Shown piece by piece: positions 1,786 through 32,871 of a DNA stretch of 64,000 nucleotides. A model generated the notes under the pieces. The model searched no databases and was not told the DNA's origin. It saw nothing but the letters and a program-made list of their open reading frames with translations. Source of the DNA: Candidatus Shapirobacteria bacterium UBA2283. Lineage in GTDB: Bacteria > Patescibacteriota > Microgenomatia > UBA12405. Each line of letters begins with the position of its first letter. Position 1 is the stretch's first letter. Location of the stretch: the NCBI GenBank assembly GCA_002345725.1, contig DDWP01000020.1, forward strand, positions 1,433 through 65,432. Direction: 5' to 3'. The translations under genes and the position numbers were made by a program.

Positions 1786-1859
1786 GCGGGATTAGTTAAT
1801 CGGTATAACTTCAGTTTTCCAAACTGATATGAGGGGTTCGATTCCCCTATCCCGCTCCA
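1786..1859 (+). tRNA. tRNA-Gly (anticodon TCC), CCA encoded
   Basis: GCGGGATTAGTTAATCGGTATAACTTCAGTTTTCCAAACTGATATGAGGGGTTCGATTCCCCTATCCCGCTCCA; acceptor GCGGGAT/ATCCCGC, anticodon loop TTTCCAA. Confidence 0.85.
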
Positions 1860-3408
1860 GATGTGAATAATTTTCCGACAGAAGGGGTTTATCCCCATCT
1901 ATCGGGCTATTTACAGGTTCGAGCCGAGCAATTTCACCCTTTTGCAATTTATCTACCTGTTTGAGGAAGATAAACGTATTTAGAGCCTTGATTCGGACTA
2001 ATCCGTCTTTTAGCTCGAGGTTCGAGCCAAGAATCCTCAGTATCATCCTTCTGGCTTCTGGGTCCTCTTTAGCATCATCAAATAGTTGAATTATTTTTGA
2101 GGCAAAGGCTAAAACCTCTTCCATGGTTTTGGTCCATGAATCCAATCCATCCTGGGCAATAGCACCCTTAGTTTGCGTCTCCTCTTCGAGTATTCTGCTT
2201 TTCTCCTTTTGGTATTGGGCTTCATCAATCATGCCGTCAATTTTCATTCCATACAGGTTTTTCTTTTCGGTAAGGATGGCCTCAAGTCGTTTCGTTAATT
2301 TTCCTTTTTGATTCTTTTCAAATTCAAATTCTTTTTCGTTTCTTCTTTTGAGGTTACCCCTGATCCAAGTTATTAGATCGGGAGAGATTTGCAGGTTGGC
2401 AACGAACGCCAGAACCTGTTCTTCTAGCTTTATGGCATTAAGATACGGCTGACTACAGTGGCCACCTTTTTTGGTACAGCGAGCATAGATAAAGTTTTGT
2501 GACTTGCCAGTAGTTTTATAGTGCTTGGTTTTGTTTTCAGCTGTGATGGATGCACCACACTCTCCACATTTAAGTACTCTCATGAAGTAGAAATCATTAA
2601 AGTTTTTGAAAATTCTTTTCCGACCGTCGATGATATCCTGAACACGGTGAAATTCACTGAGAGTAATCATTGGTTTTTGCTTACCTTCATACCGTTCGCC
2701 ATTGTAGTCGAATTGGCCGGTATAGAACACACGTCGAAAGAACCGAAAGGCTTCGGTCTTGCTTATTGGTTTACCAGTCCGCTTACTCCGAAGTCCCAAG
2801 GCAGTGACTTTTGCTAGAGAGCTTATAACCGTCTCTGTCCCAGTGAGCATTAATTCCCACCACTTTCGGCATAGGTCGAAACGATCAGGATCAGGGTAAA
2901 CGTCCTTTTGACCCTTAGGCTTAGTTTGGTCGTTGAGATATCCAAGCGGCGCTTCTCCAGGCATCCAACCCATCGTGAGCTTGGTGTGCATGCCTCTCTT
3001 AACATTGTCAGACAAATCCTTACTAAACTTGGTGGCCATACCAAACTCAATGAAAAGGAAGGTTGAATTATTTCTATCATAATCCATGGTAGGCGTAACG
3101 ATTTGCATTCCCTCATAATCAACCTTATCAATGAGCGTACCTCCTTCTTTGGCATTTCGACATAATCGATCAGCCTTCCAGCAAAGGATGTGTTTTGCTT
3201 CATTTCGAAGCATTCTGGACAGTAAAGCAGTAAACTCTGGTCGCCTATCGGGTCTTTTGGCTGATTTGCTTTCTCTATAGACACCAAGAATTGTAAAGCC
3301 CTTATCTTCGGCTAATTCGGTACATGTTCTTTGTTGGTCATCTAGAGAAAGGATTTGGCGGTCTTTATCCTCAGAGGATTTTCTACAGTAAATAAAACAA
3401 GTATTCAT
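1792..3408 (-). CDS. large serine recombinase (phage-type serine integrase)
   Basis: N-terminus IYCRKSSEDKDRQILSLDDQQR (serine-recombinase catalytic motif), recombinase domain, zinc-ribbon CGECG...C...HC, C-terminal coiled-coil. The last ~23 codons are antisense to tRNA-Gly(TCC). Confidence 0.8.
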   Translation of the reverse strand: MNTCFIYCRKSSEDKDRQILSLDDQQRTCTELAEDKGFTILGVYRESKSAKRPDRRPEFTALLSRMLRNEAKHILCWKADRLCRNAKEGGTLIDKVDYEGMQIVTPTMDYDRNNSTFLFIEFGMATKFSKDLSDNVKRGMHTKLTMGWMPGEAPLGYLNDQTKPKGQKDVYPDPDRFDLCRKWWELMLTGTETVISSLAKVTALGLRSKRTGKPISKTEAFRFFRRVFYTGQFDYNGERYEGKQKPMITLSEFHRVQDIIDGRKRIFKNFNDFYFMRVLKCGECGASITAENKTKHYKTTGKSQNFIYARCTKKGGHCSQPYLNAIKLEEQVLAFVANLQISPDLITWIRGNLKRRNEKEFEFEKNQKGKLTKRLEAILTEKKNLYGMKIDGMIDEAQYQKEKSRILEEETQTKGAIAQDGLDSWTKTMEEVLAFASKIIQLFDDAKEDPEARRMILRILGSNLELKDGLVRIKALNTFIFLKQVDKLQKGEIARLEPVNSPIDGDKPLLSENYSHLERDRGIEPLISVWKTEVIPIN

Positions 3409-4990: not shown

Positions 4991-5441
4991 ATTTTTTTCG
5001 GCGTCGAGTTTTTACATACCCGATGTAGTCCATGACCGACTCCTTCTCGCTATTGGTCATGTCCTGAACTTCTTTAAGCATTAACGTAAATGAAGAATCC
5101 TGCTTAAGCTTATTGCTGGTTTTGTCCAAATACCCGGCTTTGTTTAAAAGCATCTCGTTGGGAATTTGATAGACAAACGCCAGTGCTTTCAACTTTAATG
5201 GCGAGGGATGTAAATATTTTCCTGATTCAAGATTAGATAAATACCCTCGCGAAACAGCTGACTGGGGATCTAGTTTCCCATTTTTAATTGCCTCCTTGGT
5301 TGACTCAACCACCGAACGGAGAGTGAGATCTTTTGCTTCTCGTAACTTGCACAAATACTCACCAACGGTAGCAAAATCGTCAGGTCCTTTTAATGTGGTT
5401 TCTTTGTTTGTTCTTATCTTCATATAGGTCAATAAACTCAT
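4965..5441 (-). CDS. XRE-family HTH transcriptional regulator (ImmR/cI-like prophage repressor)
   Basis: HTH-like region LCKLREAKDLTLRSVVEST...SRGYLSNLESG; divergent from a Cro-like gene and upstream of the ImmA-like gene. Confidence 0.55.
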   Translation of the reverse strand: MSLLTYMKIRTNKETTLKGPDDFATVGEYLCKLREAKDLTLRSVVESTKEAIKNGKLDPQSAVSRGYLSNLESGKYLHPSPLKLKALAFVYQIPNEMLLNKAGYLDKTSNKLKQDSSFTLMLKEVQDMTNSEKESVMDYIGYVKTRRRKKYDKGPKKG

Positions 5442-5465
5442 CGATTTTTATTGTAACAGAAAAAG

Positions 5466-5479
5466 TAAGTAATTACTTA
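5466..5479. promoter_or_regulatory. 14-bp perfect palindrome TAAGTAATTACTTA in the divergent repressor/Cro intergenic region (candidate operator)
   Basis: Sequence is self-complementary and lies between divergent HTH genes (5441 and 5578). Confidence 0.4.
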
Positions 5480-5577
5480 TTATTCATATTATAATGATAG
5501 TTGTCTACATAAATGGACACAAACAATCATAAAGTTTATTGAAGTAAATTGCAAGAATTTGTACCTTTGTATATAAC

Positions 5578-5847
5578 ATGACAAAAACGAAATCTAAAAA
5601 AACAATATTCATCAATAAGGACAAGAGAGTTAATAACGAGTTGTTCGATGAAGTGAGACTCACCAAAGGACTATCTCGATTTCAATTGGCTGTCGAGGTT
5701 GAACTTTCTCCCCAAACCGTTAGACGAGTTTTAGTTTCTGATGAAGACCCACGACCATCAACTGTTAAAAAAGTTGGTGACTTTTTAGGAATACCAGCAA
5801 AAGAGTGGTACTTAAAAAGAGAAAACAAGGAGGTGAATCATGGATAA
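5578..5847 (+). CDS. Cro/XRE-like small HTH regulator
   Basis: LTKGLSRFQLAVEVELSPQTVRRVL helix-turn-helix; divergent from the repressor. TTGCAA-N17-TATAAC ends 3 nt before the ATG with no SD (possibly leaderless). Confidence 0.6.
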   Translation: MTKTKSKKTIFINKDKRVNNELFDEVRLTKGLSRFQLAVEVELSPQTVRRVLVSDEDPRPSTVKKVGDFLGIPAKEWYLKRENKEVNHG

Positions 5848-6053
5848 GGCAATGAAATCTAGGATCCGTGCCAGGAAGCGAAGATATTATCTCTACCGCC
5901 TAAAGATATTTATGTGGAAGTGGTTGGCGATATTACTTGGCATCTGGATTATTTACCAGCTTCTTGGGACATTTTTCCACCGATGCTGGTTGTGAATATA
6001 ACAACAATTAATACAGAACATGATTATGTCCAGCAAAAAGTTAAATCGAAACA

Positions 6054-6776
6054 ATGATGGCAAGAATCAACTACACCACAATCAATCACGAGGCTCGAGT
6101 CAGGTTGGGTTTAACCATTAATGAATATTGTGTGTACGATTTAATCCACAACTTGGCCAGTAACCCCAAAAATATTCAGATGGGCTGGTGTTATGCCAAA
6201 AAAGAAACGATAGCTGATTACTTAGATCTGAGTCGAGCAACAGTCTTTCGAGCCATTAAAAAGGGCTTGGAAATAAATCTCCTTGAAAAACATCCTGAGC
6301 AACCCGCGTTCTTAAAAGCCACTAGTGATTGGTACGACTCAGTGATGATTAAAGTCGAGTCTCAAAATGAGACGGCTAGTATCAATATGAGACGCACTCC
6401 GTCTCAAAGTGAGACAAAACCGCGTCTCAAAGTGAGATCAAACAAAGATATAGAGAACAATGAAAATGACAACACAGAAGTTGTCAATTTAAAAGGATCT
6501 TCAAAAGAGATCGTTTCTATTGGCCAAGTGATCGCTCATCACCAGCCCAGCTTATTAGAAGTAAATAACGAGTGGGAAGTGGAAGCCATTCGACTGTGGC
6601 GTGAGTTAAATTTGTCTGGCGATCCGAGCGAACCGTTTGTAAAACACATCCATCGATACATCAAAAAGAATTTACAGGTAAAGCTCTCTATTGCTCTTTC
6701 GTATTGCAAAGATGCAACTAAAGTTCGTGATCGAGAAAAGTTATTTTATTGGCGCTGTGCTAACGAGCCAGCATGA
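6054..6776 (+). CDS. phage replication-initiator-like protein (lambda O-like organisation) with iterons in its linker
   Basis: N-terminal winged-helix-like region (GWCYAKKETIADYLDLSRATVFRAIKKG); central low-complexity linker SQNETASINMRRTPSQSETKPRLKVRS encoded by repeated GTCTCAAARTGAGAC palindromes. Confidence 0.45.
   Translation: MMARINYTTINHEARVRLGLTINEYCVYDLIHNLASNPKNIQMGWCYAKKETIADYLDLSRATVFRAIKKGLEINLLEKHPEQPAFLKATSDWYDSVMIKVESQNETASINMRRTPSQSETKPRLKVRSNKDIENNENDNTEVVNLKGSSKEIVSIGQVIAHHQPSLLEVNNEWEVEAIRLWRELNLSGDPSEPFVKHIHRYIKKNLQVKLSIALSYCKDATKVRDREKLFYWRCANEPA
6359..6438. repeat. iteron array: three copies of 15-bp palindrome GTCTCAAA(A/G)TGAGA(C/T) plus a TGAGAC half-site (candidate ori)
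   Basis: Copies at 6359-6373, 6401-6415 and 6424-6438; half-site 6388-6393; all inside the 6054..6776 CDS. Confidence 0.6.
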
Positions 6777-6785
6777 GCAAACATT

Positions 6786-7886
6786 ATGAAATTTATAGAT
6801 TTATTTGCAGGAATTGGAGGATTTAGATATGGACTTGAAAAAACAAAAAATTACAAATGCGTCTGGTCCAATGAATGGGATAAATTTGCCAACCAAATCT
6901 ATACTAAGCACTTTGGAGAGTGCGACTCCAGAGACATCAGAACTGTCGATACAAAAGACATCCCAGATCACGATCTCCTCTGTGCTGGCTTTCCTTGTCA
7001 ATCATTTAGTATTGCAGGAAAAAGATTGGGATTTGAAGACACCAGAGGGACGATGTTTTTTGAAATCGCTCGGATTATCCGAGACAAAAGACCGAGATAT
7101 TTTCTACTTGAAAATGTTAAGGGGTTACTTAGTCATGACGAAGGAAAAACTTTCCAGACAATACTTGGGGTACTCTCCGACCTGGGGTATGAGTATCAAT
7201 GGCAAGTTCTTAACAGCAAGAATTTTGGAGTTCCACAAAACAGGGAAAGAATATTCATTGTCGGACATCTTAGAGAAACAAGTCGACCAGAAATATTTCC
7301 TATCGGCGAAAGCTACTCAGTTCTTAATAAGAAGAAGCATTCTGAACAAGAAGGAGGGTCGAGGGTTTCGAGCACGATTGATTCCCGTTATGGATCCCTC
7401 AGAAACTCTGGAGAAACCTACTTGCAATACATCGGAGGTATCAAAGGAAAACGAGATATGTGGATAAAAGACGATAAGCAAAACAGTCGAAACTTTAGCC
7501 AAGGTCAAAGGGTTTATTCGACCAATGGTATTGCCTCAACCTTAGCTGGCAATGCCGGTGGCTTAGGTGGAAAGACTGGGCTATATGCAATTCCGGTTCT
7601 AACACCTGACAGGCAAGAAAAACGACAGAATGGGCGTCGGTTTAAAAACGATGGTGAGCCAGCCTTTACTTTGACGAGTCAAGATCGTCATGGTGTTTAT
7701 GATGGCATTAATATTAGGCGCCTTACCCCTCTTGAGTGTGAGCGCTTGCAGGGATTTCCAGACAATTGGACTGAAGGGATTAGCGATACACAAAGATATA
7801 AATGTCTGGGGAACGCGGTGACAACAAACGTTATTGCTGAAATAGGAAAAAGATTAATTTTTATTAAAGGAGGTGAAAATATATGA
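6786..7886 (+). CDS. dcm: DNA (cytosine-5)-methyltransferase
   Basis: Motif I FAGIGGF, motif IV PCQ (GFPCQSFS), motif VI ENV, QNRERIF (motif VIII). Confidence 0.85.
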   Translation: MKFIDLFAGIGGFRYGLEKTKNYKCVWSNEWDKFANQIYTKHFGECDSRDIRTVDTKDIPDHDLLCAGFPCQSFSIAGKRLGFEDTRGTMFFEIARIIRDKRPRYFLLENVKGLLSHDEGKTFQTILGVLSDLGYEYQWQVLNSKNFGVPQNRERIFIVGHLRETSRPEIFPIGESYSVLNKKKHSEQEGGSRVSSTIDSRYGSLRNSGETYLQYIGGIKGKRDMWIKDDKQNSRNFSQGQRVYSTNGIASTLAGNAGGLGGKTGLYAIPVLTPDRQEKRQNGRRFKNDGEPAFTLTSQDRHGVYDGINIRRLTPLECERLQGFPDNWTEGISDTQRYKCLGNAVTTNVIAEIGKRLIFIKGGENI

Positions 7887-8034: not shown

Positions 8035-8298
8035 ATGACTAAAACACGTAATCAATTACTAGAAGAAATTTATAACTCTGTTCATGAGGAAAAACTTCGG
8101 ATGGAAGTTGCCATTGAAACACTGGCAGATGTTGCTGATGACAAAATCATTGAAACGGTGACTCATCGGTCCCCTTTGGGGGCTAGAGAAGAAAACCTCA
8201 CCAAAAAAGATGTGATTGCCAAATATATCCAGGATATCGAAAAGCGAGAAAAAGTATTGGTAATTATTGAAAGATTATTAAAACAAAATGAAAAATAA
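8035..8298 (+). CDS. hypothetical phage protein
   Basis: 87-aa ORF co-oriented within the early gene string, overlapping the next gene start. Confidence 0.4.
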   Translation: MTKTRNQLLEEIYNSVHEEKLRMEVAIETLADVADDKIIETVTHRSPLGAREENLTKKDVIAKYIQDIEKREKVLVIIERLLKQNEK

Positions 8299-9547
8299 AG
8301 ATTACCCAACCATCGCCATAAGCTCTCTGCGATTTGCAGAGTATAACCCACGAAAAGTTACTCGAAGTGTGGTCGACCAATTGAAGCAATCATTGACCGA
8401 GTTTGGTTGTCCGGTGCCGATTGTGGTGAATAGTTATAAAGGTCGAGAGAATGTGGTTGTGGGCGGTGAGAAGCGAGTCCGGGCAGCAACCGAGCTCGGA
8501 TGGACTGAAATTCCTTACAGTCTCGTTAATATTCCACTACAAAAAGAGAAGGCACTCAATCTGGCGCTCAATAAAATCGAGGATCAATGGGACGATGAAA
8601 AACTAGCTCAGGTAATAACTGAACTTACTAAATCCGACTTCGATTTATCGCTGACTGGATTTAATGAAGTAGAAATTAGCAATCTCCTGGATACCACCAT
8701 GCTTCTGCCAGAGAACGAATCAGAGGAGGAATGGGATACTCAAAAAGAACTCGACGAGATCTCTAAACCGATATCCAAATATGGCGAAGTGTACCAACTG
8801 GGTCCACACCGACTGATGTGTGGGGATGCTACCAAGCCAGAAGATATCCAAAAGTTGATGGACGGCAAAGTGGCAGACATAGTGTTCTCTGATCCACCCT
8901 ACAACGTCGCTCACAAAAGCATGGAGAAAGCGGGTAAATTTCATACCAAGGAAGGGATTATACTAAACGACGATATGAGTGATGAAGCTTTTATCAAGTT
9001 CACTCAGGGCTTCTTCACCAGCTTTAACAATGTCCTAAAACCGGGTGGAACTATTTATGTTTGTACCGGCTATTCCTCCTACCCTTTGTTTTATTACCAG
9101 ATGTTAAATAACGGTTTTGTTTTCAGTTCCACGATTGTTTGGGTGAAGCCTTCCTTTGCCATTGGCTGGGGTGACTATAAAAAACAGTACGAACAAGTAA
9201 TGAAAGGTAAACGTGGTCCAGGCAAATCAAAGGCAGAGCCAATCTTATATGGCTGGCGACAAGGAGAGAATCATAAGTTTGAAGGTGATGCTAACGAAAG
9301 TGATGTCTGGGAAATGCCTAGAAAAGCTGTTACTGAAATGGTCCATCCAACCGAGAAGCCTGAATGGTTAATTATGAAAGCAATAAAAGGTGGGAGCCGT
9401 GTCGGACAGTTGGCGGTGGATTTATTCGGTGGATCCGGTAGCACTTTGATGGCAGCGCACAAATTAGGGCGCATTTGTTACCTTATGGAACTTGACCCAA
9501 AATTCTGTGATTTGATCAGAAAACGGGCACAAAGGCTCAAAATTTAG
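8288..9547 (+). CDS. ParB-like nuclease domain fused to DNA N6-adenine/N4-cytosine methyltransferase
   Basis: N-terminal ParB-N-like region (IVVNSYKGRENVVVGGEKRVRAA), MTase motif IV FSDPPYNV; phage-typical ParB-MTase architecture. Confidence 0.75.
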   Translation: MKNKDYPTIAISSLRFAEYNPRKVTRSVVDQLKQSLTEFGCPVPIVVNSYKGRENVVVGGEKRVRAATELGWTEIPYSLVNIPLQKEKALNLALNKIEDQWDDEKLAQVITELTKSDFDLSLTGFNEVEISNLLDTTMLLPENESEEEWDTQKELDEISKPISKYGEVYQLGPHRLMCGDATKPEDIQKLMDGKVADIVFSDPPYNVAHKSMEKAGKFHTKEGIILNDDMSDEAFIKFTQGFFTSFNNVLKPGGTIYVCTGYSSYPLFYYQMLNNGFVFSSTIVWVKPSFAIGWGDYKKQYEQVMKGKRGPGKSKAEPILYGWRQGENHKFEGDANESDVWEMPRKAVTEMVHPTEKPEWLIMKAIKGGSRVGQLAVDLFGGSGSTLMAAHKLGRICYLMELDPKFCDLIRKRAQRLKI

Positions 9548-9562: not shown

Positions 9563-10204
9563 ATGAGCCCGCGTAATGCCCTGTGTGGGCAGATTCAAAT
9601 CAAGGTGGACCAGTTACACCTGCTAAAACATATGATAAAACCTAAACCAAAAAAACTACTAACACTGACAGTTTCAAAGATGCAAGACGAGACAGAACAG
9701 CAATATGCGGCATGGCTTCTTTATTGTGAGGCGGGCAGTATTGATAAGACCCAATTGGTGTGGGATAAGGTTGGACAAAACCTGGATGAAAGTTGGATGG
9801 TTTTAGCCAATCGGCTGGGCAAAAAGCCTAGTCATACAACCCTTGGTCTGTGGTCGAAGAAATATCGTTGGCCGGAGCGTCGTGATCTGAGATTGGAAGA
9901 AGAAATTGTTGAATTAAAGGATAAAGCAGACCGCTTCCGCAAGAAAAGAAAGTACCTGGTGACAGAACTACTTATCCAATCAGTGGCGAAGGTGCAGAAA
10001 CAAATCAAACAAACTCCCATATCAATCCTAGAGCTGAAATACCTTTGGGAGATGCATAGAACTGAGTACGACGAATCAATTGGAAAGAACGAGATCTCAC
10101 ACCGGATAGATGAGAGTGAGCAGGTACCACCCACTGATGAGGAAAAAGAGCTTGGTGTGGAGATTGATACAGCCATAAAAAAATATTATGACAAACAAAG
10201 ATAA
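9563..10204 (+). CDS. putative terminase small subunit
   Basis: Position immediately upstream of and overlapping terL; basic/coiled-coil protein; true start probably an internal Met (MIKPKPKK or MQDETEQ). Assigned by position only. Confidence 0.4.
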   Translation: MSPRNALCGQIQIKVDQLHLLKHMIKPKPKKLLTLTVSKMQDETEQQYAAWLLYCEAGSIDKTQLVWDKVGQNLDESWMVLANRLGKKPSHTTLGLWSKKYRWPERRDLRLEEEIVELKDKADRFRKKRKYLVTELLIQSVAKVQKQIKQTPISILELKYLWEMHRTEYDESIGKNEISHRIDESEQVPPTDEEKELGVEIDTAIKKYYDKQR

Positions 10205-11735
10205 AAACAGTGTTCTACACTGGATACTAAACAATAAAATTAAGAATGAGAACGGTGAACCCATCGAATTCGAGGACCACCGCTTCATGTTGGACATATA
10301 TGCAGATAAGTCGTCAGTACAGGTTATAAGGAAAGCGTCTCAGGTAGGAGCCAGCACAATGGAGATCCTCAAGGTTATTCACGACTCACGCTTCTGGGGC
10401 ATTAACCAAATCTACACGCTACCCACCGGGGATGATGTCCAACAGTTCGTACAAAGCAAAGTAAACCGGATAATAAACATTAATCCCTGCATGCTGGATG
10501 GCATTAACCCCAAGAGTGTGGACTCCATAGAGCAGAAGCAGATAGGCAAGGCCTTCACTTACTTTAAGGGTACGTTTACCGAGCGTGAGGCCATCATGCT
10601 GTCCTCTGACCGGAATATCCATGACGAGCTGGATAAATCTAAGCCAGAGGTGGTCCGTGACTACACCTCGCGTATGGGTTATTCCAAAATAAGAAGCCAG
10701 CACTTCTTCTCTACTCCAACCATCCCTGATTTTGGAGTGGATAAGATATTTGAACAATCAGACCAGAAATACTGGCGATTCAACTGCCCAAGCTGTCAGT
10801 ACAGGCAACACATGGAGTGGGAGAAGAACGTCGACGAGGCTCGAGGCATTTATATCTGTCAGAACTGTCAGGCAGAGATAAGCCCCAAACAAATAAATGA
10901 TGGTGGCAGCTGGGAGGCCAAGTACCCAGGTAGAGCAACCTCTGGCTACTGGATAAGCCAGTTGCACTGCCCATGGAAGACAGCGGCCGACTTAATCAAA
11001 GAGAAGGCAGATGCTGATGATGATGCCTATTTTTATAATTTTGTCTTAGGCCTACCATACTTAGCTGCCGACCAGAAAATACCAGCCAGCTTATTCCTAC
11101 GCAACGTTGTGGATAAAGAGGTGGATAACTTTGATGAATATAACGTCATGGGCATAGATACAGGGAAAGGAACCGGTAAGGGCAACCACGCCATCGTAGG
11201 CAACCAGAAGGGCATCTTTTGGGTTGGGATACTGCAAGATCATGAAGGGCATGATCGCTGGCAACAAGCGGCCGAGTTAATTACATTTTTCAATGTCAGA
11301 GTCGTGGTTATTGATGGCCAACCTTATACCGAGGAAGCTTTCCTCCTAGCCAAGCAATTCCCCTACAGGGTGTACTTATCCTGGTTTAAAGACGACCCCA
11401 AGATGCTAGAGGTAATACGCTTCTTTGATGAGAAGGAAAATAAGGACGCTGATTTTGAAGATGAGGTCAAAGTTTATTCCTCCCGGACCCGAATCATGGA
11501 TGACACCATTTCTGCCCTGCGCCGAGGAGAGATTCGATTTGCCATGCCATCCGACAGCCCAACCTTCAAACTGCTTATCACCCACGCCCAGACCATGTAC
11601 GCCAGGACAGTCACCGACAAGCTGGGACAGGCGAAACGAGAGTGGGCCAACACCGGTCCAAATGATTTTTGGTTAGCACTTATATATTGGCACATTGCCC
11701 TACGCAAAAGACTTAAATATGAACCAAACAAATAA
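10188..11735 (+). CDS. phage terminase large subunit (GpA-like)
   Basis: Deviant Walker A KASQVGAST, zinc-ribbon CPSCQY...CQNCQ, 515 aa, nuclease-like C-terminal half. Confidence 0.7.
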   Translation: MTNKDKNSVLHWILNNKIKNENGEPIEFEDHRFMLDIYADKSSVQVIRKASQVGASTMEILKVIHDSRFWGINQIYTLPTGDDVQQFVQSKVNRIININPCMLDGINPKSVDSIEQKQIGKAFTYFKGTFTEREAIMLSSDRNIHDELDKSKPEVVRDYTSRMGYSKIRSQHFFSTPTIPDFGVDKIFEQSDQKYWRFNCPSCQYRQHMEWEKNVDEARGIYICQNCQAEISPKQINDGGSWEAKYPGRATSGYWISQLHCPWKTAADLIKEKADADDDAYFYNFVLGLPYLAADQKIPASLFLRNVVDKEVDNFDEYNVMGIDTGKGTGKGNHAIVGNQKGIFWVGILQDHEGHDRWQQAAELITFFNVRVVVIDGQPYTEEAFLLAKQFPYRVYLSWFKDDPKMLEVIRFFDEKENKDADFEDEVKVYSSRTRIMDDTISALRRGEIRFAMPSDSPTFKLLITHAQTMYARTVTDKLGQAKREWANTGPNDFWLALIYWHIALRKRLKYEPNK

Positions 11736-13551: not shown

Positions 13552-14556
13552 TTGGGGTACCAGATCATTAATGTAGCTAGCAAATATATGAAAAGTCCAA
13601 AAATAGTATTTATAACAATAACACTACTGACACTTCTAGCTTCATCATTTTTTGTAACAAGTGCACCCCAGAAAGAGTCGACAACCACAATTTTTACTGT
13701 TTCCAAGGCTAACCAAAAACAAACAACCGAGAGACTTGTCGAAAGTGGATATCTAAGATTTTCACTTTCTCTACCTATTGCCAGGATCATGATGTTCCGG
13801 TTTGGAACAATTGACCCAGGGGGATATAAAATTTCCAAGGGAATGAATGCTCGAGAGCTAATTGTTAAACTGACATCAGAACCTCAATTGAAGTGGATTA
13901 CTATACCCGAAGGTCTTCGTAAAGAAGAAATAGGTGAACGTCTAGCAAAAGAACTTCATTGGACCAGCGAAGAATTAGATAAATGGAATACTACCTATAC
14001 AGCCATGCAATACGATTATAGGGAGGGAGTGTACTTTCCCGATACTTATCTCATACCTGTGAATGAAAATGGACTTGATACTGCTAAGCGGATGATTAAT
14101 CGTTTTAACGAAAGATTCCTAGGATACCCAGAAAAATTCACAGCAAAAAACATTAAGTGGACCACGGCTCTCACCCTTGCCTCAATTGTCCAACGTGAGG
14201 CTGCAGGATCCCACGACATGCCACTAATTGCAGGAATATTGTGGAATAGGCTTGACCAAAATAAACAACTGGAAATTGATGCTACAGTGCAATACGCGAG
14301 AGGTAAAACAGATAAAGGCTGGTGGTCACCAATTAAAGGCAGTGACACTAGAACAATAGAGTCACCTTTTAACACATATCTTAACAAAGGTTTGCCGCCA
14401 CACCCAATTTCAAATCCTGGTATGGATGCTATTGATGCGGTATTAAATCCAGAAGAAACGGACTGTATCTACTATTTGCATGACAATGATAGGATAATTC
14501 ACTGTAGCGCCTCATTCGCAGAGCATCAACTGAATATTGACCAATACCTTCGCTGA
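13552..14556 (+). CDS. mltG: endolytic murein transglycosylase MltG (YceG family)
   Basis: YFPDTYLIP, ASIVQREA, LEIDATVQYA, SPFNTYLNKGLPPHPISNPG motifs; N-terminal TM helix. Likely start at MKSPKIV. Confidence 0.85.
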   Translation: MGYQIINVASKYMKSPKIVFITITLLTLLASSFFVTSAPQKESTTTIFTVSKANQKQTTERLVESGYLRFSLSLPIARIMMFRFGTIDPGGYKISKGMNARELIVKLTSEPQLKWITIPEGLRKEEIGERLAKELHWTSEELDKWNTTYTAMQYDYREGVYFPDTYLIPVNENGLDTAKRMINRFNERFLGYPEKFTAKNIKWTTALTLASIVQREAAGSHDMPLIAGILWNRLDQNKQLEIDATVQYARGKTDKGWWSPIKGSDTRTIESPFNTYLNKGLPPHPISNPGMDAIDAVLNPEETDCIYYLHDNDRIIHCSASFAEHQLNIDQYLR

Positions 14557-18284: not shown

Positions 18285-19046
18285 TCACTTATGTTGTCCT
18301 AAAGATTTGATCGCATTGTTATACAGGCAATAGTCACAGTCCTGTCCCTGCTCTGGGTATTCGTCTGATTGTAGGCACTTGTGAGCCTCTGTAATGACAC
18401 CTTCGACCCATGAATCATCACCAACGTAGGGAATTAAGGTAATATCAAATTCAAGCTTGCTGTCGAACGCTTTTCTGTCTAGCTGTCCATTACAATAAAC
18501 AAAATAGCCAGTAGAAGAAACCTTATAGCCATTTTTACGTAGTAGCCATTGATACACCTCCATTTGACGTTTATAGCCATCTTGCCACTCTTTATTTAAC
18601 TCAGTAATCTCTTCACTTTTTGAAGTCGACTTATAGTCAACAATAATATATTCGCCTTGAGAGTTTTGCCAAAGATCATCAATGGCTCCAAAAATCAGGA
18701 GGTTGGTGGGTTTATGTAAATACTGGATACCAGTAAAATTATGCCGCCATTTTTCTAGATCAGCATGAGCAACAGGTCTTGCATCAACTCCGTATTTTTC
18801 AATTAATGGGTGTTTAGTACCATTGGCACGGTGAATGTCGAACTCTAGCTTGAGTAAATGGTCCACTGCGGAGTTGAGAGCAAAAGGGAAGCCTGGTGGA
18901 CGTGCCACGCCTAAACGACGATCAAAATAAAAACAGCGTGGGCAATTTATAAAAAGATCAATTTTTGATCGGGACAGTTTAAACGGCTCGGATGAGTTTG
19001 GATCATATAGCCCTTTGGTTCGTTGTGAGTTATAGTATTGAGACAT
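18285..19046 (-). CDS. Cas4/RecB-like PD-(D/E)xK nuclease with Fe-S cysteine cluster
   Basis: GAIDD...EYIIVDYKSTSK (D...D/ExK core); Cys at CPRCFY and C-terminal C-x12-C-x2-C; directly follows the UvrD-like gene (15-bp gap). Confidence 0.65.
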   Translation of the reverse strand: MSQYYNSQRTKGLYDPNSSEPFKLSRSKIDLFINCPRCFYFDRRLGVARPPGFPFALNSAVDHLLKLEFDIHRANGTKHPLIEKYGVDARPVAHADLEKWRHNFTGIQYLHKPTNLLIFGAIDDLWQNSQGEYIIVDYKSTSKSEEITELNKEWQDGYKRQMEVYQWLLRKNGYKVSSTGYFVYCNGQLDRKAFDSKLEFDITLIPYVGDDSWVEGVITEAHKCLQSDEYPEQGQDCDYCLYNNAIKSLGQHK

Positions 19047-19060
19047 AATTAATCAATCAA

Positions 19061-21001
19061 TTATATTTTTAGGAACGGGTATTGTTTATTCTGATTCTTA
19101 ATTATATATAAATTCTTTCTAGGTCTCGTTATCATAACGTATAATTTATTCAGTTCCTGGATATAATCATAAATTTCACCTATGTTAGCCTGGTATGTTT
19201 TCCCCCAGAAAATTGCACTGTGTAGTCCATAATTCGATTTATGTGGCAAGTCTTCAATTTTTTGGACAATCACCTGTTCGTATTCTAACCCTTTAATTTT
19301 ATGTATATATTTGATCTCAAAAGTAAGTTTTTCTGTATTTGATCTGGTAATGTACTGCAGAAAGCCCTCGAGCTTTGGTTCTGTGATGCCAGTGAGCGAA
19401 TCCATTTTGTCTGATTCGGAAATTGAAACAAAAACAGATTGTTGATTTTGATTTAAACTCAAGTTTGATTTTAGACTTGACACTAACCGCTCACTGAATG
19501 AAACAAATTCGTCAAAAATAGGCTTGTCTACGTCCAACGAAATTGACAAATCCGTGGAGTCTACCGTGATGCGAAGCAAAGCATTATTGGATATTTCGTA
19601 GTTTAATTTATCGAATGTTAATGACTGGAGCGAATAAACATATTTCTCTAAGGCTTTGGGGTATTTTAAACGGTTGTTATAAAAGTCATATTTCAAGACT
19701 AGATATTTAATGAACAATGAAAAGTACTTAAACCCATATTTGTCTTCATAGTCTTTATAAATTTCTGAGTATAAGCTAAAGTTATTTCCACTATCAGTTG
19801 TGTCGTGTAGTTTATATTGTTTGTATACATCGATAGAATTGAACCTATTTATTCCGATACAGCATACCTCTTCGTTTAGTAGTTCATTAAATTTTAGATT
19901 AACAATTTCGCTGACTGAAGAAATTGTGGATTTGATAATGACCTTGCCATCACCACCACTTCCTTGTAAATCATCAGATATCTCTAGATCATCTAGATAT
20001 CCGACGATTTCCTGATTGTTCAGGTTTTGAATGGGTCCGGATCTTTTTATTTGGTTTAAAACTTCGTTATAGTTTTTTCTTGCGAAATTAAAAACTTCAT
20101 TTGAACATCTATGAGTTTTTTCTAACTTAATTTCACAGTCAGCATTTTTATGTAATTTGTTAAAGAATGCCTTCATATCATACATACTTCTCGGATTCGC
20201 TCCTGCGAAGCCATATATTGATTGATTTGGATCGCCAACCATGAACCACTTTACCTCATTTTTCTTTTCACCACGGCTTGCACTTAGTTCCTCAATTATC
20301 TTGCACTGTATCTCAGAAACGTCTTGAAACTCATCGATAAAAATCCAATCGATAGATCTATTAAGTGCCCTTCTGACAATACGGTTCTCTTGGATAATAA
20401 ACAGGGAGAGAAGGTTAATTAGGTTAAAATCAATTAGTTTTTGTGTGCTTAGGAAATTTAGATACGATGCGATAGTGGGTATTTCATGAGCATTGCTAAC
20501 TGGTTTCCAACTTCCATTAACCAATTTCAAGTTATAATAAATTTTTCCACTCTCAAGAATCTTATTAATTTCTGACTCCTCGATGTTGTGTTTTTTCAGG
20601 TGGTCAATCAATAATTGCCCATGCTCTTGAAAGTTAAAAATCGTTTTATAAGGTCTCAAACCTTTGCTACTTTTATACAAATAGGAAAATGGTTGTAAAA
20701 CGTATTGCAAACAGAAACTGTGAAACGTAAGAAACTCAACTTTAGTTAATAATTCAGGCTTAAGTATTTTAGAGCAACTATCTTCAAGATCCTCCACATT
20801 AACATTGGTATAAGAAATACAACAAATTTTATTAATATGGGGATTATCTAACAACAAATTCTTTATCTTTAAGGTGAGGATTGTAGTTTTTCCACTACCA
20901 GGTAGAGCTCTCACAAGAGTGTCTTGATCGCGTTCAATAATTTCGATTTGTTTTGGTGATAAATCAAAATCTATGCCAAGTTTTATTTTGTAATTAACCA
21001 T
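19061..21001 (-). CDS. UvrD/Rep-family SF1 helicase (GajB-like)
   Basis: Walker A LPGSGKTT, motif II IFIDEFQD, motif III GDPNQSIY, motif VI VMITRPRKNLYI. Confidence 0.8.
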   Translation of the reverse strand: MVNYKIKLGIDFDLSPKQIEIIERDQDTLVRALPGSGKTTILTLKIKNLLLDNPHINKICCISYTNVNVEDLEDSCSKILKPELLTKVEFLTFHSFCLQYVLQPFSYLYKSSKGLRPYKTIFNFQEHGQLLIDHLKKHNIEESEINKILESGKIYYNLKLVNGSWKPVSNAHEIPTIASYLNFLSTQKLIDFNLINLLSLFIIQENRIVRRALNRSIDWIFIDEFQDVSEIQCKIIEELSASRGEKKNEVKWFMVGDPNQSIYGFAGANPRSMYDMKAFFNKLHKNADCEIKLEKTHRCSNEVFNFARKNYNEVLNQIKRSGPIQNLNNQEIVGYLDDLEISDDLQGSGGDGKVIIKSTISSVSEIVNLKFNELLNEEVCCIGINRFNSIDVYKQYKLHDTTDSGNNFSLYSEIYKDYEDKYGFKYFSLFIKYLVLKYDFYNNRLKYPKALEKYVYSLQSLTFDKLNYEISNNALLRITVDSTDLSISLDVDKPIFDEFVSFSERLVSSLKSNLSLNQNQQSVFVSISESDKMDSLTGITEPKLEGFLQYITRSNTEKLTFEIKYIHKIKGLEYEQVIVQKIEDLPHKSNYGLHSAIFWGKTYQANIGEIYDYIQELNKLYVMITRPRKNLYIIKNQNKQYPFLKI

Positions 21002-23244
21002 GATAAACCATCTTCAATATACTTCGGAATAACAAAGTCCGGTAAATCATCGAAGGCAGTAACACTGCTGCTTTTATCCACAACAGAATCACCATTCCAG
21101 GTTTCGATTTCCGCCGGGTCTTGAAGTAATTTTGCTTTAAGTAAAGATGACAAATATAACGATATGGATGGTTTAGAGACTTCGTTGCCAAGGATAATGT
21201 CAAAAAAGCTGTCGAATTTGTCCTTGTCTATACTATTAGATTTGACTTCATCTGCAAACTTATTAATGGCGTCAATTCTTTTGGAGAAAGTTTCATCTTT
21301 CTTAAAATAATCACCGTCCCTCATAAACCTGTATAGGATTAACTTCAGATACTCGACGTTATTTGCATTTGGGTTGGTCGGATCTGGAATAAAAAAACAG
21401 TCAATTTCAAAGGTATAAATATTTCTTTTTGTTACTACTAATTCTTTTTCTTGATCGGCGATTTCCGCATTTAATTCTTCATATTTTGCTTTGTAATCAG
21501 GTATCTTTTGTTCCTCTAAGTGAGAGTCTCCGTCTCGAAGATTTAAACATTTGTTATTTAAGCCTCTGGTCAAATCATTATTGAACAAAGCATTGAATGG
21601 ATCAAATATCTTTCCTCCCACCTCCACTATCTCTATACCTTCACTATCAATATCAATATTTATATCTGGATTAATGCTCTTTAAATATGAGTTGACTAAT
21701 GTTCCTAGTGTATATTTCTCAGACAACCCTTCCACTAAGATAATTTTTCGAGCAAACAACAGAGAAGATCTGGTAGCGTCTAGATATTGTTTAAGGATTC
21801 TTCTGTTATGTCCATATGTTTCGGAATTTGCTTGTAACACACTATCGATGTTAATTGCTTTTGCTTGATGGATTCCTTTTTGTAACACCACTAAGTTTTT
21901 GAGATCTGATTTAGAAGCGAGATGTGTGGAATGAGAAGTTTGTATTACTTGAGTAAAAGCAAAAAATTGTTTATCTTCATCTTCGCTTTCTTCCCCATTC
22001 GACTTATTTAATTCCATTAATTTCTGTGTTTTGTTCTCTATTTGGGTGTGTAGGTATTTTTGATTTTGGACATCTAAGTGTGCCTCTGGCTCTTCTATCA
22101 AAAGCAAATTGTATACAATCTTAATTTTTTCATCTGAATCATTAAGAATTAATTCCTTTTTGAGTTCAAATAACGCGAATATTGCCGAGATGTACGCTAG
22201 ATTTTGGTAACCCAATCCGACAACATTCATATCTTGAGATGTCTTTAAATCTTCGTTTAAGTTAACAAGAAAGTTGAAGTATCTGCCAATATTTTCTAGG
22301 GTAACTTTTGGAGTTCCAATAACAAGGTCAGCTCTATTTGACAAAAGATTAATGTCTTTATCTTGAAGACGCTTTTCAATTTCATCCAATAAAATGCTTG
22401 CTTCTGGGATAGCGCCACTTGTTCGCAAATTTTTTAAGGCGGCAGAGACTTCTTTAGAAACACTGTTATTACTATTGTTCTTAGCGCACCCTCTAATTAA
22501 TTGTGAGACTAATGAGCGGTAACCAAAGTAAAAGTCATTTTTAACGTCTCGTAAAGCGTCAAGAGCCAGTAAATTTATGTGTTTTCTAACCTTATTGGCA
22601 TAGGATTGTTTTGATAATTGTTTTTCCAGAACGACTTTGGGATTCTCTCGGATTTTTTCAATATCTTCTTCACTAAGGTAAAAGTATTTATAAAAGTCTT
22701 TTTTATCTTTACATCCGTGCAATGTCGAAATGATCGTGTCGCCGTAGTCTTTTGTTGATCCATCAGGAAGGTAATAATAACCTGAAGGGTGATATCTACC
22801 TGCAACTAAAAATCCTATGTAGTCCTCTTCGATATCGTAGCCTCCTTCCTTGTTGATGGAAGAAGGAGCGAATACAAATGATATATTTGCCTCAAGATTA
22901 TCCTCCGAGGAGTCTAGATCAATTCCGTTATTTGTAGGCGCAATAGAATATAAAAGTGATTGAATTTCTTCTTTGTTCGAGACGCTGCTGAAGGTTATAG
23001 TTATAACTATTTCCTCACCAGCAACCCAGCAATTAGCTTCCTTACTCCAACAAAAATCGTCTTCCGATAGTCTCTTGTCCCAAGGCGGCATGCTTGAATC
23101 TAGAACTAGTCGAATTGCTTGTAAAAAATTAGTTTTACCGGAGTTGTTTCCTCCAATCAGCGTAAGTGGACTTCCATCAGGAATAAACAGATCAAACTCT
23201 TCAAAGTTACGGTAATTTTTTATGTAGACTCTAGAGATGTGCAT
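20983..23244 (-). CDS. OLD-family ATP-dependent endonuclease: ABC-type ATPase plus Toprim (GajA-like, extended C-terminus)
   Basis: IKNYRNFEEF...LIGGNNSGKTNFLQAIRLVL (Walker A), LLLIEEPEAHLD (Walker B/D-loop), Toprim ILVEGLSE...GIEIVEVGGK...RDGDS; 753 aa; 19-bp overlap with the helicase gene. Confidence 0.7.
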   Translation of the reverse strand: MHISRVYIKNYRNFEEFDLFIPDGSPLTLIGGNNSGKTNFLQAIRLVLDSSMPPWDKRLSEDDFCWSKEANCWVAGEEIVITITFSSVSNKEEIQSLLYSIAPTNNGIDLDSSEDNLEANISFVFAPSSINKEGGYDIEEDYIGFLVAGRYHPSGYYYLPDGSTKDYGDTIISTLHGCKDKKDFYKYFYLSEEDIEKIRENPKVVLEKQLSKQSYANKVRKHINLLALDALRDVKNDFYFGYRSLVSQLIRGCAKNNSNNSVSKEVSAALKNLRTSGAIPEASILLDEIEKRLQDKDINLLSNRADLVIGTPKVTLENIGRYFNFLVNLNEDLKTSQDMNVVGLGYQNLAYISAIFALFELKKELILNDSDEKIKIVYNLLLIEEPEAHLDVQNQKYLHTQIENKTQKLMELNKSNGEESEDEDKQFFAFTQVIQTSHSTHLASKSDLKNLVVLQKGIHQAKAINIDSVLQANSETYGHNRRILKQYLDATRSSLLFARKIILVEGLSEKYTLGTLVNSYLKSINPDINIDIDSEGIEIVEVGGKIFDPFNALFNNDLTRGLNNKCLNLRDGDSHLEEQKIPDYKAKYEELNAEIADQEKELVVTKRNIYTFEIDCFFIPDPTNPNANNVEYLKLILYRFMRDGDYFKKDETFSKRIDAINKFADEVKSNSIDKDKFDSFFDIILGNEVSKPSISLYLSSLLKAKLLQDPAEIETWNGDSVVDKSSSVTAFDDLPDFVIPKYIEDGLSWLITK

Positions 23245-23260
23245 AGTTTATTAATTCCAA

Positions 23261-26200
23261 TCATTCACCTGATATATTAAAAAATCTTTCAAAAAATCTT
23301 GTGAGTTTGTCAAGTACGCTTTCACGCTTTTTGGTACGCTCACCTGTAGGAGAGAATCGAGATACTGGTGGTAAGATTTTTGTAATTGCCGTACCAGTTG
23401 TGGCGACGTTACCGTTTCGGAAAGCGTTCTTAATAAACGTATATGTTGCGTCATGATCTAGACCTTCACTTGTAATGATTTGCTCAAGTTCTTCTACCTT
23501 CTTGCCCTCAATAAATTTTCTCCAATCATCGTCCACAATTGAATGGACATCAAGCGATTCAATAAATTGATTGATAAGGTCTTTCTTGTTTCGCAATTCA
23601 ACGCTCGAATCGATGGCTTTATTAATATCAAGTAGAATTTCACGATTTTTTGTGTGATCCTCGTGGTACTTTTTTATCAGTCCTAGAATGTAATCAATAT
23701 TGATATCTACCTGTTTAATAAGCTCCATCTCAAATACTACATCATCATTAACATTTTCCTTACTGTCTTCTGTGCCTTTGCGGAATTCGTTATAAATATC
23801 AATATAAGCACTGTGGTAATCTTGAACGTCGCGCTCAGATAAGATCTCATTGCCCACAAATTCATCGAAGGTAGTCAGAATATTGCGTACTCGCAAAATT
23901 GCCCCATATAGTTTGATAAAGTCTTTTTGGTTTTGCTCGCCGATAATTCTTTCACCGACAGGAAATCTCTCTTGCAATTCTTTTACTAAACTTTCGTATC
24001 CCCTAATTTCTTTGCTGCCGTCGTTGTAACCATGGTAATAATCAGCATATGCCTTCAAAAGAACAATGCCGCTGGCTTCTTTATCTCCAAATAGGGCAAT
24101 GGACTCATTTGTGGCTTTCTCAAGGTTGCGAAAACAGACGATGTTCCCAAACGTTTTTACGCTATTCAAAATACGATTTGTCCGAGAATACGCTTGTAAT
24201 AATCCATGCAATCTCAAATTTTTGTCTACCCATAAAGTATTGAGAGTTGTCGCGTCAAAACCAGTTAAAAACATATTGACCACAATTAAGATGTCAATTT
24301 CCCGATTTTTCACTCGTTCGCTTACATCCTTATAATAGTTTTGAAATTTATCAGAGGAAGTATCATAGGATGTACCAAACATTTTGTTGTAATCAACAAT
24401 GGCACTTTCCAAAAAATCTCGGGAGCTTACATCAAGACCACTAGTGTCCTCCGAGTTTTCATCTATCATTCCGTCTGCATCCTCATCATTTACACCAAAA
24501 CTATAAATAGTCGCTACTTTTAGTTGTTTGTCGCTTGGGAGATCAGACAATTGTTTTTTAAACTCAGCGTAATACTTTTTGGCGACATCAATAGAAGAGA
24601 CTGCGAAGATTGAGTTAAAGCCGGCTAGTCTTCGATCCTTTAATTTATAAAAGCTATTGCGTTTAGTTTTCTGATCGAAATGTTCACGGATGTATCGAAC
24701 AATATTCTCTAGGCGTTCAGACGCAGCTAGAATTGCCTCACGGTCAATATCACTAACTTTTTTGTCTTCTATGTTTTCCGCTTCACGAACTGTCGAAATA
24801 TAGTCAACTTTAAACGGTAAAACGTTTTTATCTGCAATTGCATCTACAATGGTATATGTATGTAGCTTTTCTCCGAACGCTTGTTCGGTCGTCTTCAAAT
24901 CTGGACGACCTCCTGATGAGGCATTGATTGCAAAAATCGGTGTACCAGTAAATCCGAAGATATGGTAATTCTTAAATGTTTTGGTAATGGCGGCATGCAT
25001 GTCGCCAAACTGCGAGCGGTGACATTCATCAAATATTAGGACTACATGGTCATCAAAAATGGTGTGACCGGTATTTCGACTGATAAAACGATCGAGTTTC
25101 TGGATTGTGGTAATAATAATACGAGCATTTGAATTCTCGAGCTGTCGTGTCAAAATCGCTGTACTTGTATTACTGTTAGCAGCACCTTTTTCGAATTTGT
25201 CGTACTCTCGCATCGTCTGATAGTCCAAATCCTTGCGATCAACAATAAAAATAACCTTATCAATATAAGACAATTTGCTCGCCAATTGAGCTGTCTTGAA
25301 GCTGGTCAGGGTCTTTCCTGATCCAGTAGTATGCCAAATGTATCCACCAGCTTCTGCTGTCCCTAGTTTCTTATAGTTTGTACTAACTTCAATTCTGTTA
25401 AGAATTCTCTCTGTGGCGACTATCTGATAGGGGCGCATCACTAGAAGTAATTTGTCAGTAGTAAATACACAGTACCGAGTAAGGATATTCAAAATCGTAT
25501 GTTTTGCAAAAAAAGTCTTTGCAAAATCCATTAAGTCTGTAATAGGTCGATTGGTGGCATCCGCCCACCAACTGGTGAATTCGTAACTATTACTGGTTCG
25601 TTTGCCATTTTTAACAGAGCCTTCGTTTGAATCCTTTACATGCTGGTATCTGGTAGTGTTACTGTAATACTTGGTATGTGTGCCATTTGAAATGATAAAT
25701 ATCTGGACATATTCAAAAAGACCAGACGAAGCCCAAAAACTTTCTCGGTTATATCGATTAATCTGGTTAAACGCTTCTTGAATCGCTACTCCACGACGTT
25801 TTAGCTCGATGTGGACTAAAGGCAGCCCATTAACAAGAACTGTGACGTCATAACGATTAGCACGCTGGCCGTCTTCTGTTGCGTATTGGTTAATAACTTG
25901 CAGGCTATTGTCGTGAATTGAGTCTTTTTTAATGAGATAGATATTTTTTACTGTGCCGTCGTCACGGGTGAGATTTTTAATATGATCTTCTTGAATCGTT
26001 GCTGTTTTTTCAGTAATACTCTGATTTGGATTTGCAAGTTCACTTACAAAAAATCGTTCCCATTCGAGGTCTGAAAATGTAAATGCGTTTAGCTTTTCTA
26101 ATTGCTTACGTAAGTTCGCTATCAAATTAGCCTCTGAGCTAATAGTCACATATTCATAAGCCTGCAATTCCAGTTGCTTAATAAAAGCTCGTTCGAGTTC

Positions 26201-27482: not shown

Positions 27483-27486
27483 ACTT

Positions 27487-32866: not shown

Positions 32867-32871
32867 AATTT

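Follow-up and report, generated by a model that had tools for sequence, protein, structure and literature searches.

The 64-kb window (the 64,000 nucleotides of contig DDWP01000020.1 from Candidatus Shapirobacteria bacterium UBA2283 that were analyzed as a whole and to which all coordinates refer) contains a prophage, and in its early region lies a plus-strand gene of 723 bp (6054-6776) for a protein of 240 amino acids. Within that gene are four phased inverted repeats, here called iterons (6359-6438), followed directly by an AT-rich stretch. On evidence that is computational throughout, we argue that the gene is a predicted replication initiator gene and that 6359-6520 probably is the replication origin of the phage, laid out like the origin of bacteriophage lambda within gene O and thus placed inside the gene of its own initiator. 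A lambda O-type origin had been put forward in a first-pass annotation of the same DNA, and our analysis supports that interpretation.

The iterons are copies of a 15-bp dyad, GTCTCAAARTGAGAY, in which 6-bp arms flank an A-rich 3-bp center (a 6-3-6 design). The four copies, which belong to neither strand, start at 6359, 6379, 6401, and 6424: iteron 1 (6359-6373) reads GTCTCAAAATGAGAC, iteron 2 (6379-6393) reads GTATCAATATGAGAC, iteron 3 (6401-6415) reads GTCTCAAAGTGAGAC, and iteron 4 (6424-6438) reads GTCTCAAAGTGAGAT. From start to start the copies are 20, 22, and 23 bp apart, which amounts to about two helical turns in each case, and the array begins 305 nt inside the gene, where a disordered linker is encoded. 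Iteron 2 has a degenerate left arm and differs from the pattern at two positions. Its right arm had been listed by the first-pass annotation as an extra half-site next to three palindromes; the sites and their positions within 80 bp were thus correct, and the count was one short. When up to two mismatches were allowed, the pattern matched four times in 64 kb, always inside these 80 bp, versus 0.60 ± 0.74 matches in shuffled sequence, and 0 of 100 shuffles reached four. Moreover, when clusters of three or more similar 6-3-6 dyads were sought independently in the window, a single one was returned, and it was the array at 6359-6438. Tandem Repeats Finder reported no comparable array in the window, and hits in a scan for promoter and terminator consensus sequences were no more numerous than in shuffles. 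We also considered that the dyads might be restriction sites, as GTCTC is what we take to be a type IIS recognition site. The pentamer occurs 74 times in the window against an expectation of 90 ± 10, and that explanation was dropped because GTCTC is neither depleted nor enriched.

The array appears to be maintained as DNA. Iterons 1 and 3, at offsets 305 and 347 from the start codon, share one frame and are translated as SQNET and SQSET, and iterons 2 and 4, at offsets 325 and 370, lie in another frame and are translated as INMRR and RLKVRS. The copies are therefore not a protein repeat, as they are read in two frames. Homologous loci (numbered with an L below) were taken from genomes, viral contigs, and metagenomes. 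The gene has 70 homologues with 98 to 41% identity. In a codon alignment of 34 unique homologous genes, mostly 60 to 65% identical to the window protein, conservation of third codon positions was 0.89 over 6359-6438 versus 0.66 in the rest of the gene, with values of 0.70 for the part encoding the N-terminal domain and 0.59 for that encoding the C-terminal domain. The three-base periodicity of conservation is lost inside the array, where third positions are held as tightly as first and second positions, and the 15-bp cores are conserved at 0.92 versus 0.70 for the spacers between them. Iteron 1 is identical in 24 of the 34 genes and differs at one or two positions in the remainder; iteron 2 is the most variable copy, yet it is present at its position in all. 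Close relatives carry four RTMTCAA-N3-GAKAY dyads at unchanged positions. We conclude from these alignments that the dyad array is, in all likelihood, a DNA signal conserved as DNA and not a protein repeat, and we propose that this signal yields the disordered linker peptide as a by-product.

Right behind iteron 4 lies a candidate DNA-unwinding element (6439-6520, assigned to neither strand), which is AT rich with the A residues on the coding strand. The GC content is 0.275 to 0.30 in 40-nt windows over 6440-6519 versus 0.40 for the whole window, and AT skew after iteron 4 rises to +0.72; the first-pass annotation had suggested looking for such an element next to the array, and one is present. 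Of the 34 homologues, 30 retain the motif AAACAAAGATATAGA (6440-6454) directly behind iteron 4. In most of the distant relatives whose dyads are embedded, an AT-rich, often polyasparagine-coding stretch occupies the equivalent place. In the 75 residues past the N-terminal domain, four or more asparagines fall within 8 residues in 55 of the 89 family representatives, a run of residues with AT-rich codons is seen in 72 of the 89, and many carry short repeated peptides just ahead of that run. In relative L023, the AT-rich stretch past the dyads (6376-6440 of that locus) includes three tandem AAGGATATAGAT units, which recall the repeated AT-rich motifs of bacterial unwinding elements, and the window has a single AAAGATATAGAG at that place. 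The stretch in the window also contains a palindrome at 6463-6490 (AAAATGACAAC / GTTGTCAATTT, with the arms 6 nt apart), which was left out of the proposed origin because it is kept only in the closest relatives.

The protein encoded around the array has two predicted folded domains and a disordered middle. An AlphaFold model of the full protein, built from a 26-sequence alignment, places a winged-helix DNA-binding domain at residues 8 to 100 (6075-6353, plus strand; predicted local distance difference test [pLDDT] score, 80 to 93), as the first-pass annotation had recognized, with the topology helix-helix-helix-strand-strand. Residues 101 to 170 are disordered (pLDDT, <50) and correspond exactly to the span encoded by the dyads and the AT-rich stretch. 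The peptide encoded across the array is ESQNETASINMRRTPSQSETKPRLKVRS, so that the earlier description of a low-complexity interdomain linker in a 240-residue protein holds. Residues 171 to 240 (6564-6773, plus strand) form a C-terminal four-helix domain, presumably a recruitment module, which when modeled alone again gave four helices with a mean pLDDT of 84.7.

Profile matches point to replication. Among PHROG families, ten matched the window protein at an E value of ≤0.1, and nine of them are annotated as replication initiation, O-like initiator, or helix-turn-helix (HTH) DNA-binding families, the last in the nucleotide-metabolism category; the tenth and weakest match was to a family without known function. 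The best matches were phrog_428 (1e-6), phrog_270 (6.6e-6), and phrog_345 ("O-like"; 2.5e-5), and phrog_678, likewise "O-like," matched at 5e-4, the O-like matches being weak. Ten distant relatives matched PHROG replication initiators, O-like initiators, and DnaD-like loaders, with a best E value of 7e-17; the exceptions were one family without known function for L074 and one weak transcriptional-regulator match for L063. Pfam HTH_36 (PF13730) scored 15.3 bits against a cutoff of 25 for the window protein, and L023, L061, L063, and L065 reached the threshold (25.1 to 26.2 bits). Thus, the N-terminal domain does not fall in a family devoted to something other than replication, an outcome that the first-pass annotation had held open, and by profile comparison the window protein belongs to the broader HTH_36-type phage initiators. 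The family of the N-terminal domain is large, with 1,062 clusters at an E value of ≤1e-3 among 50% identity representatives, and its members are mostly 230 to 300 amino acids long with the domain at the N terminus. Some proteins depart from that size: P0072 (1,867 amino acids) has 19 separate stretches that match residues 32 to 64 of the domain, apparently a long tandem array of a partial winged helix, and P0075 and P0111 each have two stretches matching the domain.

How the sites and the domain vary together across relatives is the decisive evidence. Distant relatives share only the N-terminal domain, at 28 to 48% identity, and have three to five copies of a differing 6-3-6 dyad right behind it. 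The dyad is GTGAACAAAGTTCAC in L012 and L064, GTAAACnnnGTTTAC in L024 and L075, GTTCAGAAAATGAAC in L025, GTCGCAAAATGCGAC in L060, GTAAAGAAACTTTAC in L062, GGGAAGAAACTTCCC in L065, GAGAAGAAACTTCTC in L078, and of the GTATCAAAATGATAC type in L023 and L079. Across 22 sources (217 kb), an unbiased scan detected 16 clusters of three or more similar 6-3-6 dyads, 15 of which sit 289 to 330 nt into the initiator gene with neighbor spacings that are nearly all 20 to 24 bp. The sixteenth cluster is unrelated and consists of four GCATACCAAGTATGG copies exactly 21 bp apart at L023:10426-10503, about 4.4 kb downstream of the initiator gene. The predicted recognition helix RATVFRAIKKG pairs with the GTmTC...GAkAC type of dyad, RRAVTTMIGK and KRSVTTMIAK pair with GrGAAG...CTTCyC dyads, REGVNKIEAK pairs with GTGAAC...GTTCAC dyads, and RQSIFTIVKK and RQSIHSMIKN pair with GTAAAG-type sites. 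Judging from these pairings, dyad class tracks the predicted recognition helix across the family.

The C-terminal domain, in turn, is swapped among relatives independently of the N-terminal domain plus iterons. In L078, a C-terminal domain of the window type is joined to a different recognition helix and a different dyad, and therefore the N-terminal domain and its sites move as one module, separately from the C-terminal domain. The sites may also lie outside coding sequence. In L071, L072, and L073 (about 1244-1900), the open reading frame (ORF) ends past the N-terminal domain (137 codons in open frame); just downstream, noncoding DNA contains three to four GTAAAGAAnnTTGAC-type sites and an AT-rich stretch. 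In L081 (1900-2146), two GTATCAAAATGATAC sites and an AT-rich stretch lie about 200 to 250 bp upstream of the gene, and none are in the linker. The noncoding sites of these loci indicate that the element is independent of translation. In L070 (1420-2130), what looks by eye like an HNH-endonuclease insert (CFYC...DH...N...CISCN) takes the place of the dyad array.

Taken as an origin, 6359-6520 is likely but several results weigh against it. The family matches of the window protein are modest (E value of 1e-6, with HTH_36 below threshold), and the winged-helix fold is of a generic MarR type that also serves repressors and the centromere-binding protein TubR. Foldseek searches with the N-terminal domain returned MarR-type winged helices as top matches at E values of about 0.02, which is not diagnostic; the full model found generic winged helices only, and a profile search with alignment A1 against PDB sequences gave only MarR-type matches at E values of >0.1. 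Near the array, DnaA boxes show neither enrichment nor clustering. Moreover, the C-terminal domain has no Pfam match and no significant Foldseek neighbor in PDB or BFVD, and because it lacks a recognizable relative, helicase recruitment by this domain is argued solely by analogy. Three named BFVD matches are DnaD-like/replisome-organizer proteins, a hint at most as their E values are 5 to 9, and several relatives with other C-terminal domains match phrog_186, "DnaD-like helicase loader." Separately, tblastn searches with the window protein and its relative L023 against 50,697 deposited phage genomes found nothing, and a blastn search of 5500-7000 against the same genomes matched only the start of the methylase gene.

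The dyads might instead be operator or roadblock sites for transcription of the early operon, and the protein might be a transcription factor and not an initiator. The closest folds to the N-terminal domain are indeed MarR-type repressors, and the L081 sites lie upstream of the gene, as expected of an autoregulatory operator. Operators, however, would leave unexplained the AT-rich stretch past most arrays, the three to five phased copies, and an intragenic site some 300 nt into the gene. The PHROG matches of the protein and the ten relatives point to replication, bar the weak transcriptional-regulator match of L063, and the switch region between the repressor and Cro-like genes (5441-5578) has repeats unrelated to the dyads. 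Moreover, the phage would be left without any replication function. We consider an operator in place of an origin improbable, and autoregulation could coexist with origin function.

Very unlikely, in our estimation, is a centromere-like or packaging (pac) site that serves the ParB-methylase or the small terminase and has nothing to do with the protein of the gene in which it lies. About 2 to 3 kb downstream lie genes for a ParB-domain methylase (8288-9547) and a small terminase (9563-10204), and a TubR centromere-binding fragment was among the fold matches. Site sequence, however, changes in step with the recognition helix of the protein in whose gene the sites lie, and L012, L023, L025, and L078 keep the sites with no ParB-methylase or terminase match in the fetched flanks. 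The sites thus follow the N-terminal domain into unrelated gene contexts, which makes such a role hard to sustain, and the phage, which integrates by a serine recombinase, needs no partition system.

Scarcely credible is a role of the palindromes as hairpins in mRNA or single-stranded DNA, for instance to pause translation between domains, with compensatory changes in the arms keeping the stems. As a single strand, the dyad segment does fold far better than shuffles (z = -5.3), and both arms change together between families. A hairpin, however, needs no copies of the same sequence within a genome, no fixed spacing of about 21 to 23 bp, no conserved A-rich center, and no match to a recognition helix. 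The stems would be just 6 bp with a 3-nt loop, the sites of L071 to L073 lie past the stop codon, and an Rfam search found no family. That the repeats merely mirror a repetitive, low-complexity linker peptide without any role as DNA, a doubt that the first-pass annotation had itself raised, can be set aside with near certainty: the linker is disordered and SQNET/SQSET-like peptides recur, but two of the four copies encode unrelated peptides in a different frame, third codon positions are held more tightly in the array than elsewhere, dyad symmetry is meaningless at the protein level, and differing dyads occupy the same place with the same spacing in homologues.

The likely origin resembles ori-lambda in its layout. 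In lambda, four inverted-repeat iterons and an AT-rich tract lie in the middle of gene O, the O protein binds these iterons, and this tract is required for unwinding (PMC7466680). The annotated lambda record puts the first iteron 348 nt into O with spacings of 20, 24, and 23 bp, and the window has spacings of 20, 22, and 23 bp from 305 nt. In both, the A-rich or AT-rich tract is on the same side of the iterons, and the span of the iterons codes for a flexible linker that joins an N-terminal DNA-binding domain to a C-terminal recruitment domain. Moreover, iteron type switches together with the N-terminal domain in lambdoid phages, including Stx phages, as it does here. The sequence CTCAAAAyGAG is common to both iteron cores and may be a coincidence. 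The likeness does not extend to ancestry that we could detect: a Pfam scan at an E value of ≤1 gave no match to Phage_rep_O (PF04492), and hhalign of alignment A1 with lambda O gave a probability of 0.5%. The resemblance is therefore one of architecture, a correction to the reading of the first-pass annotation. The window iterons are 15 bp whereas those of lambda are 18 to 19 bp, the initiator has 240 amino acids whereas O has 299, and in place of a neighboring P- or DnaC-type loader gene there follow a C5 methylase, an 87-amino-acid ORF, a ParB-N6 methylase, and terminase. Unlike lambda, the phage has its relatives in Patescibacteria genome bins.

Other replicons share parts of the same design. 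In the Bacillus phage SPP1, gp38 binds oriL repeats that lie within gene 38 and adjoin an AT-rich unwinding element (PMC6316719). The likeness is again one of layout, with the repeats of an origin-binding protein in its own gene beside an AT-rich element, but SPP1 has direct repeats, a second origin (oriR), the loader gp39, and the DnaB-type helicase gp40, none of which is present in the window phage. Profile matches place HTH_36-type initiators (PHROG 270, 428, 186, and 678), such as PL1_36 of Lactobacillus phage PL-1/J-1, in the same superfamily, and a tblastn search with relative L012 gave weak matches to PL-1 and J-1. PL-1 is a cultured phage, and its annotated replication initiation gene, PL1_36, has three phased 23-bp direct repeats (GGTATACCsAAAAAyyGGACAGG; L083:2680-2748) beginning 323 nt into the gene with an Asn-rich stretch behind them, in what looks like the same origin-in-gene layout. 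PL-1 differs in that its repeats are direct 23-mers and not 15-bp dyads and in that a DnaB-like helicase gene comes next and SSB and Erf recombinase genes come ahead, none of which the window phage has. Iteron plasmids (RepA/RepE/pi/TrfA) likewise combine an initiator with phased iterons that adjoin an AT-rich unwinding element. Their Rep proteins, however, contain a pair of winged-helix domains (WH1-WH2), and the direct repeats that they bind lie outside the rep gene, whereas the window model has one winged helix and a four-helix domain, and its dyads are intragenic. Reports of origins inside rep genes also exist for lactococcal phages such as TP901-1 and Tuc2009; TP901-1 and the Lactobacillus phage A2 do not enter the evidence used here.

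The genes around the predicted initiator are those of a temperate phage. On the minus strand, a queuine tRNA-ribosyltransferase gene that is probably of the host (387-1898) is followed by a large serine recombinase, or integrase (1792-3408), and, up to 5441, by genes for a DUF3800 protein, an ImmA-like M78 peptidase, and an HTH repressor. Next come a Cro-like HTH gene (5578-5847, plus strand), a 51-amino-acid ORF, the initiator gene, a C5 methylase (6786-7886), the 87-amino-acid ORF, the ParB-N6 methylase, and a block of small and large terminase genes (9563-11735). The initiator gene thus follows the divergent repressor/Cro-like pair and precedes the methylases, as had been noted in the first reading of the sequence. 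The gene order, with the initiator after the Cro-like gene, is kept in about 50 related loci, in which initiator identity is about 60 to 65% versus 75 to 85% for Cro, the methylases, and TerL, and only TerS is lower. In L002 (6708-7457), and likewise in most relatives of 60 to 65% identity, an extra gene of 249 amino acids with a hydrophobic N terminus by eye lies between the initiator and the C5 methylase; the window lacks it. In turn, some close relatives (L001 and L027) have no C5 methylase.

To the right of the terminases are a sigma factor, a YceG-like gene, and a defense island, and past the island, to about 51 kb, are genes for a portal-like protein, a major head protein, an amidase, a tail fiber, and a 1,541-amino-acid protein. 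The YceG/MltG-like gene (13552-14556; Pfam, 8e-63), behind the terminase block, resembles host housekeeping genes, as does a pair at 31940-33840, an aldo-keto reductase and a D-2-hydroxyacid dehydrogenase between the portal-like and major head genes. These may be cargo genes, or they may mark a composite element. The prophage carries the defense island (18285-29070, minus strand) between its terminase/sigma block and its portal-like gene. Encoded there are a Cas4-like PD-(D/E)XK nuclease (18285-19046), the Gabija proteins GajB (19061-21001; PADLOC, 3e-50) and GajA (20983-23244; PADLOC, 8e-63), and, in full, a type I restriction-modification system (hsdR, 23261-26308; hsdS, 26298-27482; hsdM, 27487-29070). 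We also weighed whether the first 12 kb could be a satellite-like element apart from the capsid genes and rejected it, as relatives of the head protein and of the initiator share the same IMG/VR contigs. The shared contigs therefore point to one phage of roughly 35 to 55 kb.

The 240-amino-acid protein is the only recognizable replication gene product of the phage. A scan of 48 ORFs of the phage region (with about 15 smaller ORFs outside the scan) found no replicative helicase, loader, primase, or polymerase, and the only helicase-like proteins among them were GajB and HsdR of the defense island. Related prophages are found in large contigs of genome bins of Gottesmanbacteria (91% identity), Pacebacteria, and Daviesbacteria, and truncated matches occur in Saccharibacteria bins. 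Several carrier bins among the L003 to L008 records are labeled Gammaproteobacteria/Pseudomonadales, which looks inconsistent with the isolate names, one of which contains "PATE." These labels suggest either mislabeling or a broader host range.

How the origin would work may be proposed by analogy. Upon induction or infection, a rightward early transcript (the Cro-like gene, the 51-amino-acid ORF, and 6054-6776) would supply the initiator, dimers of which may occupy the four dyads through the N-terminal winged helix. As the sites are separated by about two helical turns, all four face the same side of the DNA helix, and the bound initiators could bend it into a nucleoprotein complex like the lambda "O-some." Such a complex would then strain and open the adjoining A-rich, low-GC stretch. 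Because no phage helicase, loader, or primase was found among the ORFs scanned, we propose that the C-terminal four-helix domain brings in the replicative helicase of the host, either directly or through a host loader. Once fired, the origin at 6359-6520 may support bidirectional (theta) replication. A bolder and rather doubtful extension is that the 723-bp gene is a self-contained replicon in Patescibacteria hosts, one that dispenses with phage helicase, loader, and primase because a C-terminal domain of orphan fold loads the host helicase by a route not previously described.

The proposed mechanism is a textbook one and changes no concept. Rather, its points of interest are the Patescibacteria bins in which relatives occur, the lack of a companion replication gene, and the covariation of site and helix across the family. 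The lambda layout, in which a linker peptide is dictated by a DNA signal, would recur in a large family (about 1,000 clusters at 50% identity) without detectable homology to O. Because site and recognition helix change together, the family is a natural data set from which a recognition code of winged helices could be read. We know of no experimental work on phage replication in Patescibacteria, and the locus provides a candidate origin and initiator, both concrete and testable, for temperate phages of a widespread family with relatives in genomes of that group (the candidate phyla radiation). The gene and the probable origin within it are a candidate minimal replicon for organisms without genetic tools. 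If the replicon were indeed self-contained, it would be a ready-made minimal replicon on which to build genetic tools, of which this bacterial group has very few.

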